Below, in pieces: positions 1,448-32,543 of a stretch of DNA of 64,000 nucleotides. Below the pieces are notes generated by a model. It searched no databases, was not told where the DNA came from, and saw only the letters and a program-made list of their open reading frames with translations. Source of the stretch: Bacteroidota bacterium (GTDB lineage: Bacteria > Bacteroidota > Bacteroidia > Chitinophagales > Chitinophagaceae); the NCBI GenBank assembly GCA_037139075.1, contig JBAXHC010000001.1, positions 2,795 to 66,794 on the forward strand, given 5' to 3'. A program made the position numbers and the translations under genes. Each line of letters opens with the position of its first letter. The stretch's first letter is position 1.

Positions 1448-1517
1448 GATTTTTTAGCTGTTTTAGTCTTATTCCTTTCCGTCTGTCTAATTTTTCTAGA
1501 CAAGAAGTTCTTTCGTG

Positions 1518-1525
1518 TATTTTTG
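1518..1525 (+). promoter_or_regulatory. Bacteroidota -7 promoter element (TATTTTTG) for the tolC-adaptor operon
   Basis: Exact TAnnTTTG match, 6 nt before ATG 1532. Confidence 0.5.
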
Positions 1526-1531
1526 TTTTAT

Positions 1532-2953
1532 ATGAAGAAGTTTTTGACCTTAATAGCTTTAACAGCTTCCCTTCATTCCTTCTCTCAGGAAAAGTGGGAT
1601 TTAAGAAAATGCGTTGATTATGCATTGCAGAATAATATTTCTGTGAAGCAGGCAGATGTGCAGGCACGTTTGTCGAAGTTATTGGCCGATCAGTCTAGGT
1701 TGACTCGTTTGCCCAATGCAAATGCAAGTGTTAGTACAACCTATCAGCATGGTTTAAACATCAACCCAACCACCAACGTCTTTGAAAACGTAGATATTTC
1801 GGGAGGTAATTTGGGTTTTCAATCGTCTTATACCATTTTCAACTGGTTTGCTCGTAAGAACAATATCGAGTCAAATGCTATCACAGCTAAAGCCGATGAG
1901 TTGAATATTGAAAGGACTAAGAATGATTTGGCATTGTCTGTTGCTAATGCATTTTTGCAGGTGATGTTAAGGCGAGAGCAAGCTAATGTAAGTGGCGTTC
2001 AATTAAAACAATCACAAGAGCAATTAAGAAATACGCGCAAGTTTGTGGAAGCTGGAAGTCAGCCTGAACTTAATGCAATTCAATTAGAAGCCCAGGTAGA
2101 AAGAGATAGTGCCACCTATATTCAGGCATTAGCTTCTGCCGAACAGGGTATTATTAACTTGAAAGCATTTATGAATTTTGATTTTGCTTCTCAGTTTGAT
2201 ATTGTGTATCCAGCTGTTGAAAGTATTCCTGTTGATAATATTTTAGATCTTCAACCTCAGGCTGTTTACGAGTTAGCTTTATTAAATCAACCTCAGCAAA
2301 AAGTTACAGCCTTACGTATTGAATCATCACAAAAATTAGTAGGAGCTGCTCGAGGATCTATGTATCCAACCCTTAGTGCATCGGGCTCATTGAATACCCG
2401 ATTTGCTAATAATGTATATGACTATAGAAGTCAAACTATACTTGGACCAACAAGCGCATATGCTTTGGATAATGCAAATAAGTATCCAGTATATGCTTAT
2501 CAAAATAGCATTACAGGAATTGATAAAGTAAGTTTAGGAAATCAGTTGAATAGATATTTTGGACAGGCGTTAGGATTGAATTTAAGTATCCCTTTATTCA
2601 ATGCACACCAAGCACGTACTCAGTGGGAGAGAGCAAAAATTAATGTTCGCCAAACACAATTACAAGACGATCAGGAAAAACAAACTTTAAGATCTAATGT
2701 ATTTATCTCTTATCAAGATGCCTTTTCAGCATTACAGAAATATAACTCTTCAAAGAAAAGTGTAGTTGTATCAGAGAAAGCGTTGGAATTTGCACAAAAG
2801 CGTTATGATGTTGGTTTATTAGGTACGCTTGATTTGATCACAACTAGAAACAATGTGTTTACTGCAAAGATTCAGGAATTAAGTAACCACTATGAATATG
2901 TATTTAAACTAAAAGTACTGGAGTTCTTCAAAGGCCAGGGCATTAGATTATAA
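1532..2953 (+). CDS. TolC-family outer membrane efflux protein
   Basis: Signal peptide MKKFLTLIALTASLHSFSQ; two OEP repeats (LRKCVDYALQNN; AQKRYDVGLLGTLD). ATG 1532 preferred over TTG 1523. Confidence 0.9.
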   Translation: MKKFLTLIALTASLHSFSQEKWDLRKCVDYALQNNISVKQADVQARLSKLLADQSRLTRLPNANASVSTTYQHGLNINPTTNVFENVDISGGNLGFQSSYTIFNWFARKNNIESNAITAKADELNIERTKNDLALSVANAFLQVMLRREQANVSGVQLKQSQEQLRNTRKFVEAGSQPELNAIQLEAQVERDSATYIQALASAEQGIINLKAFMNFDFASQFDIVYPAVESIPVDNILDLQPQAVYELALLNQPQQKVTALRIESSQKLVGAARGSMYPTLSASGSLNTRFANNVYDYRSQTILGPTSAYALDNANKYPVYAYQNSITGIDKVSLGNQLNRYFGQALGLNLSIPLFNAHQARTQWERAKINVRQTQLQDDQEKQTLRSNVFISYQDAFSALQKYNSSKKSVVVSEKALEFAQKRYDVGLLGTLDLITTRNNVFTAKIQELSNHYEYVFKLKVLEFFKGQGIRL

Positions 2954-2994
2954 AAGCAAACATCAAAATTAACACACAAGAAACACTGTTTTAT

Positions 2995-4362
2995 ATGAGT
3001 AAGAAATTGATTTGGATTATCGTAGCATTAGTTGTTGTAATTGGGGTATTAATCGGCCTCAAAAAGGGCGGCGTGATAGGTAAAGAAGAAGGTACAAAAG
3101 TAACTACTGAAAAAGCTATTAAGCGCACTATCATCGAGACTGTGAACGCAAGTGGTAAAGTATATCCAGAAGTGGAAGTAAAAGTAAGTCCGGATATTAG
3201 TGGTGAGATTACTGAACTTTATGTAAACGAAGGTGATACCGTTAAAAAGGGTCAGGTGTTAGCACGTATATATGCTGATATCTATTCTACTCAACGTGAT
3301 CAGGTTGCTGCAGGAGTTAACCAGGCGAAAGCTCAATTATCTAATTCAAATGCAAATTTGGTGGGATTAAAAGCTGTTTTGGATAATGCAAAAGCAGTGT
3401 ATGACCGTCAGAAAAAACTAGTTGATGATAAAGTTATTTCTCGCTCTGAATTTGAGCAGTCACAGCAAACCTATCTTTCTGCAATGGCATCTTATAATGC
3501 TGCAAAAGAAGGATTGAAAAGTGGAGAGGCAAGTATTCAGGGAGCTCAAGCGCAATTAAATAAAGCAGATAAGGACATGTCTCGTACTGTTATTACTGCG
3601 CCAATGGATGGTTTAATTAGTTTGATGAGTGTAAAAAAAGGAGAGCGTGTAGCTGGTAACAGTTTTAATGTGGGTACTGAAATGATGCGTATTTCAGATA
3701 TGAGAAGTATTGAAGTACGTGTGGATGTTGGTGAAAATGATATTCCAAAAGTAAAAATTGGAGATACTGCAATTGTTGAAGTTGATGCGTATACAAATAG
3801 AAAATTCAAAGGTGTAGTATATAAGATAGCGAACCCAAATACTGGTACTTCTCTTACTACCTCTTCAACTGATGTAACAAATTATAAAGTACATATTCGT
3901 TTATTGACATCATCATACGAAGATTTGATTACTCCTAAAAAGAGTTTTCCTTTCCGCCCGGGTATGAGTGCAAGTGCTGATATCCAAACTAAAACAAAAG
4001 CTAATGTTTTATCAGTTGCATTGAATGCTGTAACTACTCGTGATAAGAATGGTGATGCTAAAGCTAGTAGCACTGATAAAAAAGACGAAAAGAAAGCAGA
4101 TGACAATGCAGTAAAATCTGTAACTGCAAATGATGATATTGAAGAAGTGGTGTTCGTACTTCAAAAAGATAATACAGTTAAAAAGATCAAAGTTAGAACT
4201 GCTGTTCAGGACTTGAATAATATTGAAATTCTTGCAGGATTGAAAGAGGGAGATGAAGTTATTACTGGTCCATATACCATTGTAAGTAAAACTTTAAAAG
4301 ATGGTGCTAAAGTTATGGTAGTGGCAAAAGATAAATTATACGACGAAAAGAAGAAAGATTAA
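2995..4362 (+). CDS. Efflux periplasmic adaptor (MacA/HlyD-like membrane fusion protein)
   Basis: N-terminal anchor, lipoyl halves (VSPDISGEITELYVNEGDTVKKGQVL; ITAPMDG), coiled-coil hairpin, FRPGMSA. Confidence 0.9.
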   Translation: MSKKLIWIIVALVVVIGVLIGLKKGGVIGKEEGTKVTTEKAIKRTIIETVNASGKVYPEVEVKVSPDISGEITELYVNEGDTVKKGQVLARIYADIYSTQRDQVAAGVNQAKAQLSNSNANLVGLKAVLDNAKAVYDRQKKLVDDKVISRSEFEQSQQTYLSAMASYNAAKEGLKSGEASIQGAQAQLNKADKDMSRTVITAPMDGLISLMSVKKGERVAGNSFNVGTEMMRISDMRSIEVRVDVGENDIPKVKIGDTAIVEVDAYTNRKFKGVVYKIANPNTGTSLTTSSTDVTNYKVHIRLLTSSYEDLITPKKSFPFRPGMSASADIQTKTKANVLSVALNAVTTRDKNGDAKASSTDKKDEKKADDNAVKSVTANDDIEEVVFVLQKDNTVKKIKVRTAVQDLNNIEILAGLKEGDEVITGPYTIVSKTLKDGAKVMVVAKDKLYDEKKKD

Positions 4363-4459: not shown

Positions 4460-5464
4460 ATGCGGATTGGAATTATTGGAAGCGGAAGCTGGGCTACAGC
4501 ATTGGCAAAAATTTTAACCGATAATGGCAATTCAATTAATTGGTGGATCCGGAATGCCGATACCATTGAATTGATGAAGAAGAGAAAGCACAATCCGCAC
4601 TACTTAAGCGTTGCCTATTTCGATCCCTCTCAATTATTTTTAAGTAACAATATCACAGAAATTGTTGAAAAATCTGATACCCTTGTAATTGCCGTACCCT
4701 CTGCTTTTGTGTTAGCTGCATTGTCTTCCTTACCTAAAGACGCATTGAAGGGGAAACAAATTGTTTCTGCTATTAAAGGTATTTTGCCAGAAACCAATGA
4801 ACTTTTAAATGACTATCTCTTAAAAGAATTTAATGTTCCCATCGAAAAATATTTTTCTGTATTAGGGCCTTGTCATGCAGAAGAAGTAGCTGCTGAAAAA
4901 TTATCTTACCTAACTTTTTCTGGAGTCAATGAATCAAACGCATATAATATTGCTAGGTATTTTCAAACCGAATATTTGAATACAGTTGTGAATCATGATG
5001 TAATGGGTGTTCAATATGCAGCAGTTCTAAAAAACATTTATGCACTGGGTGCAGGGATTGCACATGGCTTGGATTATGGCGATAATTTTCTGAGCGTTTA
5101 TATAGCTAACAGTGCCAATGAAATGACAACATTCTTGAAATGTTTATTGCCTGCAAATAATAAAGAAAACCCAGAAATTAATTACAGTGCTTCTGTTTAT
5201 TTAGGAGATCTATTAGTTACCTGTTATTCTTTATACAGCAGAAACAGAACATTCGGAAATATGATTGGGAAAGGTTATTCTGTGAAAGCAGCGCAACTTG
5301 AATTGAGTATGATAGCAGAAGGGTACAATGCCAGTAAATGTATCGTAAAGACTAATGAAAAGATTCAAGCTGAGATTCCTATTGCATATACTATTTATCA
5401 GATTTTATGGGAACATTTATCTGCAGCTGAAGGATTTAAAAAAATTGAAGGGTATCTGTTTTAA
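4460..5464 (+). CDS. gpsA: NAD(P)H-dependent glycerol-3-phosphate dehydrogenase
   Basis: IIGSGSWATALA Rossmann motif; GPCHAEEV, LKNIYAL, GDLLVT, SRNRTFG, AEGY. Confidence 0.95.
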   Translation: MRIGIIGSGSWATALAKILTDNGNSINWWIRNADTIELMKKRKHNPHYLSVAYFDPSQLFLSNNITEIVEKSDTLVIAVPSAFVLAALSSLPKDALKGKQIVSAIKGILPETNELLNDYLLKEFNVPIEKYFSVLGPCHAEEVAAEKLSYLTFSGVNESNAYNIARYFQTEYLNTVVNHDVMGVQYAAVLKNIYALGAGIAHGLDYGDNFLSVYIANSANEMTTFLKCLLPANNKENPEINYSASVYLGDLLVTCYSLYSRNRTFGNMIGKGYSVKAAQLELSMIAEGYNASKCIVKTNEKIQAEIPIAYTIYQILWEHLSAAEGFKKIEGYLF

Positions 5465-6585
5465 ATAAAGAATAAGTCTGAAGCAATCCCATCTGCCATT
5501 AGCTTGCCAGCATTTGTTAAGATCAAGTTTTTATCCTTAAGAATCATATATCCTTGCAGGATTGGTTTCTGAGCTATTTCGATAATTTGATGCAATTCTT
5601 TTTCACTCCATTTTCGACTTACTGTTTCCAATGAAAGTCCTTCCATGGTGCGAAGACTAGTCATGATGTATTCATTGAGTTGTTCCATGGAACTGAGTAT
5701 TTCCAATTCAAAGGGCACTTGATCTTTTGCAAGACTTTGAATATACAATGCATTATTCGCAATATTCCATTGACGAGATCTGCCATTGAAAGAATGTGCT
5801 GAAGGACCTAGTCCTAAATAGTCTACACCATTCCAGTAATTACTATTGTGTTTACTTTTTTTTCCAGGCTTTGAAAAATTAGATATTTCATAATGATCAA
5901 ATCCCGCTTCTGCTAGCCATTGCATTAACAAACTAAAATGCCTCGCTTGTTTATCAGGATCAACTGCTTCTATTTTTTTTTGTTGAATCATTTTCTCGAG
6001 TCCGGTTTTCGGCTCAACCGTAAGTGCGTAACAAGAAATATGATCAATACCAAGAGACAGGGCTTTATCTACATTTTCTTTCCATGCTTCATCAGTTAAA
6101 GTTGGGGTGCCATAAATAAGGTCGATTGTGATATTATCAAAACCAGCATCTTTTGCCATTCTAATACAGGAATCTGCCTGTGATGCATTATGGGCTCTAT
6201 TCATCCATTGAAGATCTGCTTCGAAAAATGATTGAATCCCAATACTGAGTCGATTGATCCCCATTTTTTTCCAGGCCTCCAGTTTTTCTTCTTCAAAATC
6301 GTCGGGATTTGTTTCAATGGTTATTTCAGCATTTACTGCAATTTGATATTCTGATTGAAGTATTTCCATTACTTTTTGGAGCTGATGGATGGAAAGCAAA
6401 GAAGGAGTGCCGCCTCCAAAATATATAGTTTCTATCGGTTCAGACAAATAGTCCTTTTGTAAAACTGCTTCTTTCTCAATGGCAGCCATCATCGGTTCGA
6501 TCTGATGGTGCGTTGTTGAAAAATGAAAATTACAATAATGACAGGCTTTTCTGCAAAAAGGGATATGAATATAAATGCCTGCCAT
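5461..6585 (-). CDS. hemW: Radical SAM heme chaperone HemW (HemN-like)
   Basis: YIHIPFCRKACHYCNF radical SAM motif; YFGGGTPS, YEISNF, HNSNYW. Confidence 0.92.
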   Translation of the reverse strand: MAGIYIHIPFCRKACHYCNFHFSTTHHQIEPMMAAIEKEAVLQKDYLSEPIETIYFGGGTPSLLSIHQLQKVMEILQSEYQIAVNAEITIETNPDDFEEEKLEAWKKMGINRLSIGIQSFFEADLQWMNRAHNASQADSCIRMAKDAGFDNITIDLIYGTPTLTDEAWKENVDKALSLGIDHISCYALTVEPKTGLEKMIQQKKIEAVDPDKQARHFSLLMQWLAEAGFDHYEISNFSKPGKKSKHNSNYWNGVDYLGLGPSAHSFNGRSRQWNIANNALYIQSLAKDQVPFELEILSSMEQLNEYIMTSLRTMEGLSLETVSRKWSEKELHQIIEIAQKPILQGYMILKDKNLILTNAGKLMADGIASDLFFI

Positions 6586-6697: not shown

Positions 6698-7723
6698 TTG
6701 AAGCAAATTCTTCTTTTACTCGTTTCGCTGTTTACTATCGGAATAGCTTTTGGGCAAACCGATACAATCAGTCAAACTGACTCAACTCAAAAAAAAATAA
6801 AGGCAATCCCTGAATCTACCCGAACATTAATTATTGCACCTGTTCAGAAAGACACTCAATCCATAGTTGCTGCTAATCCTATAACAATAGTAGAGGACAG
6901 TTTGAAAATAGATAGTATCAGAAAGGACAGCATTGCGCGAATGGCAGTAAAATATCCTATTGTTACCAATACCGATACCCTGACCTATGAAAAATATTAT
7001 ACTTCTGCCTGGCTGCCATTTGAAAAGACACCCGTTTTTGATATTATAGCTGAAAGAAAACCCTCAGGGAAAGAATTGTTATTTTATATCCTAACAGGCT
7101 TAGTAGCTTTATTGGCCGCTATCAGATTGATTTTTCCAAAGTACTTTAAGAATTTGTTTTTGCTATTTATGCAGACCTCCATTCGGCAAAAGCAAACCAG
7201 AGAACAGCTATTACAAAACAACCTTGCCTCTGTTTTTTTGAATATATTATCCATTGCAAGTGCCGGACTATATATAACCCTCCTCATTCAATATAAACAG
7301 TGGGTAGATCTTCCTTTTTATCATTTGTTGTTATATAGTGAAGGGTTTTTATTTATCGTTTACTTAGGAAAATATATTTTTCTTGCATTTTCGGGATGGG
7401 TATTTAATGTTCAAGAAGCAACAAGCGCATATTCTTTTATTGTTTTCATGGTAAATAAAGTATTAGGGATTGTTTTAATACCATTTGTGCTGGTGATTAC
7501 ATTCTCTCCATTGCCCATCAAACAGGTATCTATAACTATTTCCGCAGCGATTGTATTAGCACTTTTCTTTTACCGTTATTTGATTTCATTTGGAGTGATC
7601 AGAACAAATTTGAAAGTGAGCGCCTTTCACTTTTTCTTGTACCTTTGTGCTGTTGAACTACTTCCGCTCGTATTGATATATAAACTTTTAGTCAATTTTG
7701 CAACGGGAAGTATTTTATTATAA
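6698..7723 (+). CDS. DUF4271-like membrane protein with N-terminal signal peptide and stalk
   Basis: Signal peptide, ~100-aa polar stalk, several TM helices, C-terminal HFFLYLCAVELLP motif; directly upstream of a uroS-like gene. TTG start. Confidence 0.7.
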   Translation: MKQILLLLVSLFTIGIAFGQTDTISQTDSTQKKIKAIPESTRTLIIAPVQKDTQSIVAANPITIVEDSLKIDSIRKDSIARMAVKYPIVTNTDTLTYEKYYTSAWLPFEKTPVFDIIAERKPSGKELLFYILTGLVALLAAIRLIFPKYFKNLFLLFMQTSIRQKQTREQLLQNNLASVFLNILSIASAGLYITLLIQYKQWVDLPFYHLLLYSEGFLFIVYLGKYIFLAFSGWVFNVQEATSAYSFIVFMVNKVLGIVLIPFVLVITFSPLPIKQVSITISAAIVLALFFYRYLISFGVIRTNLKVSAFHFFLYLCAVELLPLVLIYKLLVNFATGSILL

Positions 7724-30247: not shown

Positions 30248-30583
30248 ATGTCAAAAAAGAACAAACCAGATACCCGGGGTTTTGTATTTAGTACGGATCC
30301 GAATTTTTCATTCGAATCTAATGATGAAATAATGAAAACACTTGTTCCTGCTCAACAGAAATTAAGGGTGCGTTTAGAAACCAAACATCGCGCAGGTAAA
30401 GCTGTAACATTAATAACTGGCTTTATAGGCACTGAATCTGATCTTGAAATATTGGGCAAGCAATTAAAAAATTTCTGCGGCACTGGTGGATCTGCAAAAG
30501 ATAGCGAGATCATTATACAAGGAGATCAGCGTATTAAAATTTTACCTTGGTTAATTAAAAATGGATACACTCAATCGAAGTAG
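30248..30583 (+). CDS. yciH: SUI1/YciH translation initiation factor-like protein
   Basis: RAGKAVTLITGF, LKNFCGTGGSAKD, IIQGDQR. Confidence 0.9.
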   Translation: MSKKNKPDTRGFVFSTDPNFSFESNDEIMKTLVPAQQKLRVRLETKHRAGKAVTLITGFIGTESDLEILGKQLKNFCGTGGSAKDSEIIIQGDQRIKILPWLIKNGYTQSK

Positions 30584-30586
30584 TTC

Positions 30587-32383
30587 TTAATAATCAATAT
30601 CCATCTTCAAACGATCTTTTAATTCTCGAACCAATGGGAATTGTTCAGCAATCCTTTCAAATTTTTGGCGACTGTTTAGCCTTAAGTGAACGGGTACTTC
30701 TTCTTGCTCGCTGGCATCTACCAATATTTCGAATGAAATACTTCTATTGTTAAAACCTTTTTGAAGATATTCAAGTAATGCCATTCTATCTTGTTCCACA
30801 AATTTTTGAGAAGTGATTGAGCCAACCGAAATGGTAAAAAATATATCGTTCTCAATAGATAGTCTGGCAATTTTAAAAGTACCAAAAGAAGAATGCTTTT
30901 TTTGCTCTTCTAATGTGATAGTAAATGCGTCCCATAAGGTTTTGAGTTTTTCCATATTCAAAACTTCGGCATCTTTTACTTCTTCAATGGTATATTGCTC
31001 ACCATATTTTTCTCTTAATGAATCAAGCAATCCTTTTTTTGTGCCACCTAATTGAATGGGAGTTTTTGGTTTAACAGGGTCAGTAGATGTTTTAATTACT
31101 TCTGCTGCTATAGGCTTATTTACAGGGGCAGTAGATTTTGGTGTTTCAATAAAAAGTTTTGAAGCAGGAACATCAACTGGCACCTGCGTGTTAATTTGGA
31201 TGGGAGGAACCTGTTTAAGTTTAAAAGCTATTGGCCCGTCAATTCGTTTTTTTTTTACAAGTTGGCCATTATCAACAGAAAGTTCAATTGCCTGTTGTAG
31301 AAAGTTCAGTTTAATCAATGTGAGTTCAACATGCAATCTTTTATTGCGCGCCATTTTATAATTAATCTCAGATTCATTTAAAATATTTAAGGCACTCACC
31401 AAAAAAGAGACTCCAGATTTTTCTGCAGCTTGTATGTATTTTGTCTGCATGCCTTCCACTACTTCTAAAAGCGAAGCTGATTTCGGGTCCTTACAAACTA
31501 ATAAATTCCTGATAAATTCCGCAAAACCATTCAGTACTAAATCACCTTCAAACCCTTTTCTATTTATTTCATCAAAAAGCAACATGGCTGCAGGCAGATC
31601 CTGTGCCTGCATAGATTCCAATAATTTGAAATAGTAATCGTCGTCTAAAATATTTAAATGTTCAAGGGTATTCTGATAGGTAACGATACCGTTTGTAAAA
31701 CTTACAATTTTATCAAGTATACTTAATGAATCGCGCATACAACCTTCGCTTTTTTGAGCGATAACTTGTAATGCTGCTTTATCAGCCTTGATAGATTCTT
31801 TGTCTACAATTTCTTGTAAGTGTTCAACTGTATCATTATTTGTGATTCTTTTAAAATCAAAAATTTGACAGCGACTTAAAATGGTAGGCAAAATTTTATG
31901 CTTCTCAGTAGTTGCCAAAATAAATATGGCGTAAGGCGGGGGTTCTTCCAATGTTTTTAAAAATGCATTGAAGGCACTAGCACTTAACATGTGTACCTCA
32001 TCTACTATATACACTTTGTATTTACCTGCCTGTGGCGCAAATCGAACCTGTTCTACTAATGCACGAATATCATCAACAGAGTTATTACTTGCCGCATCCA
32101 ATTCGTGTATGTTCATAGAAGTACCCGCATCAAATGAAGTACAACTGTTGCAGGTATTACAGGCTTCTCCTTCTGGCGTTTGATTGGTACAATTAATTGT
32201 TTTTGCAAGAATACGTGCACAGGTAGTTTTACCAACTCCTCTCGGGCCGCAAAATAAAAATGCATGTGCTAACTGGTTATTCCTGATAGCATTTTTTAAA
32301 GTGGTTGTTATATGCTGCTGCCCTACAACCGTATTAAAATTCTGTGGGCGGTACTTTCTTGCTGAAACGATGAAATTGTCCAT
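30587..32383 (-). CDS. dnaX: DNA polymerase III subunit tau/gamma
   Basis: ARKYRPQNF, GPRGVGKTT, zinc Cys cluster, DAASNNSVDDIR, DEVHML, LKTLEEPP, TILSRCQ. ATG 32383 preferred. Confidence 0.97.
   Translation of the reverse strand: MDNFIVSARKYRPQNFNTVVGQQHITTTLKNAIRNNQLAHAFLFCGPRGVGKTTCARILAKTINCTNQTPEGEACNTCNSCTSFDAGTSMNIHELDAASNNSVDDIRALVEQVRFAPQAGKYKVYIVDEVHMLSASAFNAFLKTLEEPPPYAIFILATTEKHKILPTILSRCQIFDFKRITNNDTVEHLQEIVDKESIKADKAALQVIAQKSEGCMRDSLSILDKIVSFTNGIVTYQNTLEHLNILDDDYYFKLLESMQAQDLPAAMLLFDEINRKGFEGDLVLNGFAEFIRNLLVCKDPKSASLLEVVEGMQTKYIQAAEKSGVSFLVSALNILNESEINYKMARNKRLHVELTLIKLNFLQQAIELSVDNGQLVKKKRIDGPIAFKLKQVPPIQINTQVPVDVPASKLFIETPKSTAPVNKPIAAEVIKTSTDPVKPKTPIQLGGTKKGLLDSLREKYGEQYTIEEVKDAEVLNMEKLKTLWDAFTITLEEQKKHSSFGTFKIARLSIENDIFFTISVGSITSQKFVEQDRMALLEYLQKGFNNRSISFEILVDASEQEEVPVHLRLNSRQKFERIAEQFPLVRELKDRLKMDIDY
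31228..31258 (-). other. Candidate programmed slippage/frameshift site in dnaX (A10 run with nearby stops in both shifted frames)
   Basis: mRNA GTA AAA AAA AAA CGA ATT GAC GGG CCA ATA G; the -1 frame reads ACG AAT TGA, the +1 frame AAC GAA TTG ACG GGC CAA TAG. Confidence 0.6.
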
Positions 32384-32543
32384 AATTGCTGAAACTGCTC
32401 CAAAAGTAAGCAATGGTAAGATTTTTGGAAGAGTAAGTTTTCGACATTATCTAATTCTGAAAAATATTTCGAAATGAATGCTGTTTCACCTATTTTGGTT
32501 ATTTTGAATATTACTTGAGAGATACATCTATAATTATTATACT

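Follow-up and report, generated by a model that had tools for sequence, protein, structure and literature searches.

In Thermus thermophilus, a run of nine A's within dnaX gives rise to tau and gamma at a ratio of about 1:1 by transcriptional slippage (Larsen 2000 PNAS 97:1683, as related in PMC1088944 and PMC5009743). A second group of poly-A dnaX genes comes from Antonov et al. 2013 (NAR 41:6514, PMC3711429; Supplementary Figure S3), who reported 17 two-ORF dnaX genes from 12 genera; A10 runs occur in nine of these, namely in Flavobacterium johnsoniae, F. psychrophilum, Cytophaga hutchinsonii, Capnocytophaga ochracea, several Chlorobi and Coraliomargarita. The two-ORF genes of that study are distributed over Bacteroidetes, Chlorobi and Verrucomicrobia, and transcriptional realignment was predicted for them, the criterion given in the same source being a need for both +1-nt and -1-nt events. 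Recoding of dnaX at a poly-A run is thus not a new idea, having already been put forward for Bacteroidetes and Chlorobi (Antonov et al. 2013, PMC3711429), and the gene described below is one more instance. The third point of reference is Escherichia coli, in which gamma is produced by -1 programmed ribosomal frameshifting on the heptamer A_AAA_AAG, accompanied by an upstream Shine-Dalgarno element and a downstream stem-loop; gamma is cut there just past domain III, at a stop 1-2 codons into the -1 frame. The literature that we searched contained no report in which dnaX slippage had been put to an experimental test in Bacteroidota.

The gene studied here lies in a window of 64,000 nucleotides, the whole stretch of DNA that was analysed, taken from a metagenome-assembled genome (MAG) of a member of the Chitinophagaceae (3.37 Mb, 35.5% GC, 197 contigs). 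The nearest named dnaX loci belong to freshwater Sediminibacterium and Chitinophagaceae MAGs, and the window sequence is found in many lake metagenomes. On the minus strand, the open reading frame (ORF) listing gives a dnaX coding sequence at 30587..32383, running from an ATG at 32383 to a stop at 30587 and encoding full-length tau in the zero frame (598 aa, 67.4 kDa). Its identity is supported over the full length of the product by NCBIfam model NF011531 (DNA polymerase III subunit gamma/tau), which scores 705.8 bits (cut-off 685) and aligns dnaX residues 1-596 with profile positions 1-613 of 614, and by the Pfam clamp-loader domains DNA_pol3_delta2, DNAX_ATPase_lid and DNA_pol3_gamma3, whose matches extend over residues 22-363.

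The product can be divided into two parts. The clamp-loader core that tau and gamma would share, consisting of the AAA+ ATPase, the lid and domain III (collar), is encoded at 31257..32383 on the minus strand; TIGR02397 (dnaX_nterm) matches residues 6-359, and residue 363 is the last of domain III (PF12169). The tau-only part, a linker followed by the C-terminal domains, is encoded at 30587..31246 on the same strand. When the C-terminal 213 aa that follow the run were searched alone, they matched NF011531 positions 440-613 (E 5e-13) and hence correspond to the tau-specific region. The C-terminal domains of E. coli tau bind DnaB and Pol III alpha, and by homology the tau-only part of the present protein would do the same.

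Between domain III and the tau-specific part stands a homopolymer of ten A's (31247..31256, minus strand), a proposed slippage site that occupies codons 376-379 and lies 13 codons past domain III. Counted from the ATG, codons 376-380 read GTA AAA AAA AAA CGA. Both non-zero frames are closed shortly beyond it. One additional A, or a -1 ribosomal shift, would lead through V K K K T N to a TGA in the -1 frame (31239..31241, minus strand) two codons past the run, ending a product of 381 aa and 42.7 kDa. Loss of one A would lead through V K K N E L T G Q to a TAG in the +1 frame (31228..31230, minus strand) six codons past the run, ending a product of 384 aa and 43.0 kDa; two additional A's would give 385 aa (...VKKKNELTGQ) and the same TAG, while a gain or loss of three would restore the tau frame. 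The preliminary description of this DNA had placed the run at these nucleotides and codons, which proved exact to the base, and all of its coordinates for the 381-aa and 384-aa products were correct when the sequence was read again. Its statement that the site lies where the AAA+ and collar domains end is likewise borne out by the Pfam boundary at residue 363.

We estimate at roughly three in four the probability that one gene yields both tau and gamma here through programmed recoding, by transcriptional slippage at the A10 run. On this model, RNA polymerase would realign the nascent RNA on the template within the run, so that the resulting mRNAs would contain 9, 10, 11 or 12 A's. Full-length tau, whose C-terminal domains act as a tether for polymerase and helicase, would be translated from messages of 10 (or 7 or 13) A's; those with 11 or 8 would terminate two codons on, at the TGA, and those with 9 or 12 would terminate six codons on, at the TAG. 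Either off-frame outcome would leave a gamma-like protein of about 43 kDa comprising the clamp-loader core only. The slippage, its transcriptional nature, the gamma protein and the tau:gamma ratio are features that we infer.

This arrangement resembles that of T. thermophilus in several respects. The gene is the same, tau is encoded by a single ORF, a sense-strand poly-A tract stands after the clamp-loader core (A9 in Thermus, A10 in the window), and close stops occupy both other frames, so that any change in length that is not a multiple of three would produce gamma. The differences are that the present gene belongs to another phylum and to a low-GC genome, that its run is one base longer, and that slippage and gamma are experimental findings in Thermus, whereas here they are predicted. 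With the two-ORF genes of Antonov et al. 2013, the locus shares the phylum-level lineage, the A10-type run, its place in dnaX and the predicted mechanism, which is a prediction in that source also. The roles of the frames are, however, reversed: in the two-ORF genes the zero frame encodes gamma and a slip is needed for tau, while in the window the zero frame continues through the run as a single 598-aa ORF, tau is in frame and gamma would come from the slip. The window gene is therefore, as its sequence indicates, a Thermus-like, tau-in-frame version within the Bacteroidota lineage of Antonov et al. 2013. What it has in common with dnaX of E. coli is the gene itself and a predicted gamma cut just past domain III, with the stop 1-2 codons into the -1 frame. 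It differs from the latter in carrying A_AAA_AAA and A_AAA_AAC inside an A10 run, the heptamer A_AAA_AAG being absent, in the lack of a conserved stem-loop, in the closure of both alternative frames, and in having relatives that need shifts in either direction.

As homopolymers are prone to sequencing errors and the genome is a MAG of 197 contigs, one might suspect in the run an artefact of assembly or sequencing, or else a phase-variable tract of unequal length from cell to cell at the DNA level. Such explanations are next to negligible in our estimation. An independent freshwater metagenome contig (X4) spans 30400-31361 with five substitutions and without a gap across the identical A10, which places the run in an independently assembled strain. 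Runs of the same length class are found in about 150 other genomes, including single-contig assemblies, and heritable on/off switching of an essential gene such as dnaX is implausible.

The comparison with relatives was begun with a set of 30, made up of 18 congeners and representatives of 12 other families of the order. A run of A9-A11 was present at the homologous position of dnaX in 29 of the 30, including all 18 congeners. Together with 80 named Chitinophagales loci, these make an order-level set of 110, in which 98 loci carry such a run (A9 in 46, A10 in 50 and A11 in 2), with the understanding that relatives are non-independent samples. The run starts in codon phase 0 in 42 loci and in phase 1 or 2 in the others, so that all three phases are represented. 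Where it starts in phase 2, the preceding codon may be GTA, TCA, ATA, ACA, CTA or TTA, the third-position A alone being constant. The alignments thus indicate that the run is preserved as nucleotides while its phase and the adjoining residues vary.

A further sample of the phylum, 80 loci from 37 families drawn from a search of 200 genomes, extends this picture. Runs of A9-A11 at aligned residues 360-392 were found in 53 of the 80, and the carriers reach 64% GC, at which a run of this length is very improbable from composition. All sampled members carry it in 19 of the 37 families, some members in four and none in 14; mean GC is higher in the families without it. The preliminary description had called for orthologues to be compared as to whether they keep AAA or change to AAG codons, and in this comparison the uninterrupted run was retained in the 98 of 110 order-level and 53 of 80 phylum-level loci just given. 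The nearby off-frame stops, about which the same question had been raised, were retained too.

These stops were counted in the 92 loci that have a single ORF and a complete N-terminus. A -1-frame stop exactly two codons past the run is present in 80 of the 92 (87%), where stops within two codons have a background frequency of 24%, and a +1-frame stop within eight codons is present in 89%, against a background of 50%. In one clade the sequence is A10-C-TAG-T-TGA, which closes both alternative frames within 8 nt.

Such figures bear on the notion that the run has no recoding role at all, being a patch of three lysines encoded in an AT-rich genome that prefers AAA, with any slippage amounting to unselected noise. 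KKK is indeed conserved as a protein motif in the Chitinophagaceae, and AAA accounts for 76-79% of lysine codons, so that part of the persistence of the run could be due to codon bias; off-frame stops are frequent in AT-rich DNA, the background median being 7-9 codons, and the run has been lost in some lineages. We nevertheless consider this explanation highly improbable, since the -1 stop stands at a fixed distance in 87% of loci, and since the run persists at up to 64% GC, in three codon phases and amid varied flanking residues.

Codon statistics from the genome itself weigh further against it. As proxies for genes we used non-overlapping ORFs of at least 120 aa (n=2603, 89% of the genome), in which AAA makes up 79% of lysine codons. 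KKK is written as AAA-AAA-AAA in only 19 of 364 cases (5.2%), compared with an expected 49%, and is thus about nine times rarer in this form than codon usage predicts, while AAA-AAG-AAA and AAG-AAA-AAA together account for 62%. The coding DNA of this genome clearly selects against A9-type runs, an indication that they are costly and the signature to be expected if they cause slippage (Baranov 2005, PMC1088944). As an observation in its own right, the avoidance suggests that the transcription or translation machinery of the organism does in fact slip at runs of this kind.

The whole genome contains only 13 A/T runs of at least ten nucleotides. Within the proxy ORFs, sense-strand A10 runs number only five. 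Four of them are confined to codons 9-93, two of which (codons 9 and 16) may precede the true start, and that of dnaX alone is located far into a long gene. Two of the other four, both outside the window, deserve separate mention. One (G000 C47:16360-16369) is at codon 93 of 266 in a gene whose product resembles, by eye, a WecB/TagA-type glycosyltransferase, and the other (G000 C67:5190-5199) is at codon 29 of 296 in a gene whose product similarly resembles an ABC-2 polysaccharide-export permease. These could be phase-variable or slippage-prone surface-polysaccharide genes.

The window provides two internal controls. The preliminary description had cautioned that A9 runs also occur in hemW and in DUF4271, and both exist: at codon 202 of hemW (5461-6585, minus strand) and at codon 31 of the DUF4271 gene (6698-7723, plus strand). 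The hemW run is absent in all five of the closest congeners, and the DUF4271 run is absent in all three congeners whose alignment reaches the site; in the congeners even the local protein sequence differs at these places. Both runs look like unselected occurrences, and because they are not conserved they do not weaken the case for dnaX. Taken together, the conservation of the dnaX run, the figures for KKK (5% versus 49%) and the controls point to a run that is under selection and is not a by-product of composition. Codon bias alone, by which a KKK with 76% AAA would appear as A9 in about 44% of lineages, was rejected on account of the avoidance across the genome, the changes of phase, the carriers with high GC, the -1 stop at its fixed distance and the split-ORF relatives described below.

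The run is missing from 12 of the 110 Chitinophagales loci, in some of which KKK is retained but interrupted by AAG. These absences, along with those in 14 of the 37 families, lead us to the view that the putative slippage device is dispensable or replaceable in some lineages. Two side observations concern individual genera. In Ilyomonas, two MAGs (L044 and L053) keep KKK in AAG-broken form (GTG AAA AAG AAG and ATA AAA AAG AAA) but no longer have a -1 stop close by, while Ilyomonas limi (L041) retains A9; it looks as if the slippage site had recently disappeared inside one genus. In dnaX of Ginsengibacter hankyongi BR5-29 (L088:~1501-3321), eight A's are succeeded by a G (AAT AAA AAA AAG CAG GTT GAG), which creates an in-phase E. 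coli-type heptamer, A_AAA_AAG, with a -1-frame TGA two codons on; a change from transcriptional slippage to ribosomal frameshifting may have taken place here within the Chitinophagaceae.

Relatives in which tau is out of frame provide a different type of evidence. Among the 53 run carriers of the phylum sample, the tau frame is zero in 32, -1 in 20 and +1 in one. Within Chitinophagales, one locus (L027) has tau in the -1 frame and requires an extra A, whereas two (L022 and L029) have it in the +1 frame and require one fewer; L123 is a further relative with tau in the +1 frame. The split-ORF layout, in which the zero frame stops at the run, is seen in L022, L027, L029, L115 and 21 phylum-wide loci, and that of L022, L027 and L029 is exactly the two-ORF arrangement of Antonov et al. 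2013. In these three, the out-of-frame ORFs past the run are 178-230 aa long and match NF011531 in its C-terminal portion. For their recognition the NCBIfam profile was required, as a tblastn search of the split relatives with the window's C-terminal 213 aa gave one weak match. Split layouts are common to whole families (5/5 in f22, 4/4 in f44 and 2/2 in f32) and so are not assembly errors.

Tau is essential. The split-ORF relatives must therefore slip at the run, and they must do so in both directions. In more than 20 of the sampled genomes tau is obtainable only in this manner, a circumstance for which a run without a recoding role offers no account. The preliminary description had suggested a likely tau/gamma recoding site, a proposal that gains support from the run in orthologues, the off-frame stops and the split-ORF relatives, with gamma itself as a predicted product.

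The nature of the slip is a separate matter. Gamma could instead be made from a uniform mRNA by -1 programmed ribosomal frameshifting on an in-phase A_AAA_AAA, after the manner of E. coli dnaX. That heptamer is present here and in all run-bearing relatives, the -1 stop is better conserved than the +1 stop (80 of 92 at exactly two codons), tau is in the -1 frame in 20 phylum-wide loci, and the A8-G of Ginsengibacter hankyongi, with its -1 TGA, furnishes A_AAA_AAG. An upstream Shine-Dalgarno stimulator is unlikely, however, as Bacteroidota make little use of Shine-Dalgarno pairing. A downstream stem-loop of the E. coli type was not found either: folding of the flanking RNA gave mean z-scores relative to shuffled sequences of -0.38 upstream and -0.33 downstream, which is no excess, and RNAalifold on 96 aligned flanks returned no pairs and 0.0 kcal/mol, so that neither a stem-loop nor any other consensus structure is conserved. 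A UGGCC/GGCCA pairing around the run of the window, spotted by eye, was rejected for want of support in the alignment. Furthermore, A_AAA_AAA is far less shift-prone than A_AAA_AAG in E. coli (PMC5009743), and a -1 shift leaves unexplained the +1-frame tau of L022, L029 and L123 and the conserved +1 stops, as well as the selection for 9 to 11 A's where seven would do. Gamma made from a uniform mRNA by ribosomal frameshifting is accordingly improbable in our judgement, but some contribution of such shifting may occur, as the in-phase heptamer is never missing from the run.

Transcriptional slippage of the Thermus type is favoured over E. coli-type frameshifting by the lack of conserved RNA structure in the flanks. 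It is also a better fit than one ribosomal shift to relatives that need slips in both directions, and realignment during transcription is what the selection for 9-11 A's, rather than merely seven, and the closure of both alternative frames favour. The tRNA complement does not contribute to this question: aragorn identified 21 tRNAs in the MAG, among them one tRNA-Lys(UUU), a set too incomplete for an argument from shiftiness.

Three freshwater metatranscriptomes and one DNA metagenome were compared with positions 30400-32500. The metatranscriptomes yielded contigs over ~31734-32380 and a piece near 30867-30898, all of which fall outside 31247-31256; these are assembler contigs, in which minor length variants would be hidden. 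Short contigs from the three metatranscriptomes are identical to the 5' part of dnaX (32036-32380), and the gene may thus be transcribed in situ, carry-over of DNA being an alternative source of the contigs.

A more far-reaching conjecture, which we regard as improbable, is that the poly-A site dates to the common ancestor of Bacteroidota and Chlorobi, that slippage is near 50%, and that single-A insertions and deletions flip tau among the three frames, with the tau:gamma ratio set by run length (9, 10 or 11) and potentially responsive to NTP pools or growth rate. All three states of the tau frame (zero, -1 and +1) do occur within one order. On this conjecture, the run would not be a device fixed at 1:1 but a means of regulating, in a tunable way, what the replisome is composed of.

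Genes with the two-ORF layout in relatives would be called truncated genes or pseudogenes by annotation unless slippage is recognized. The reason for which a short gamma accompanies the essential tau in bacteria is still open (bioRxiv 10.1101/2022.11.10.516041), and our survey adds comparative weight to the view that the production of two DnaX forms is under selection, in that most Chitinophagales and many other families of Bacteroidota retain the putative site despite strong avoidance of such runs in the genome as a whole, while the product encoded in frame flips between tau and gamma.
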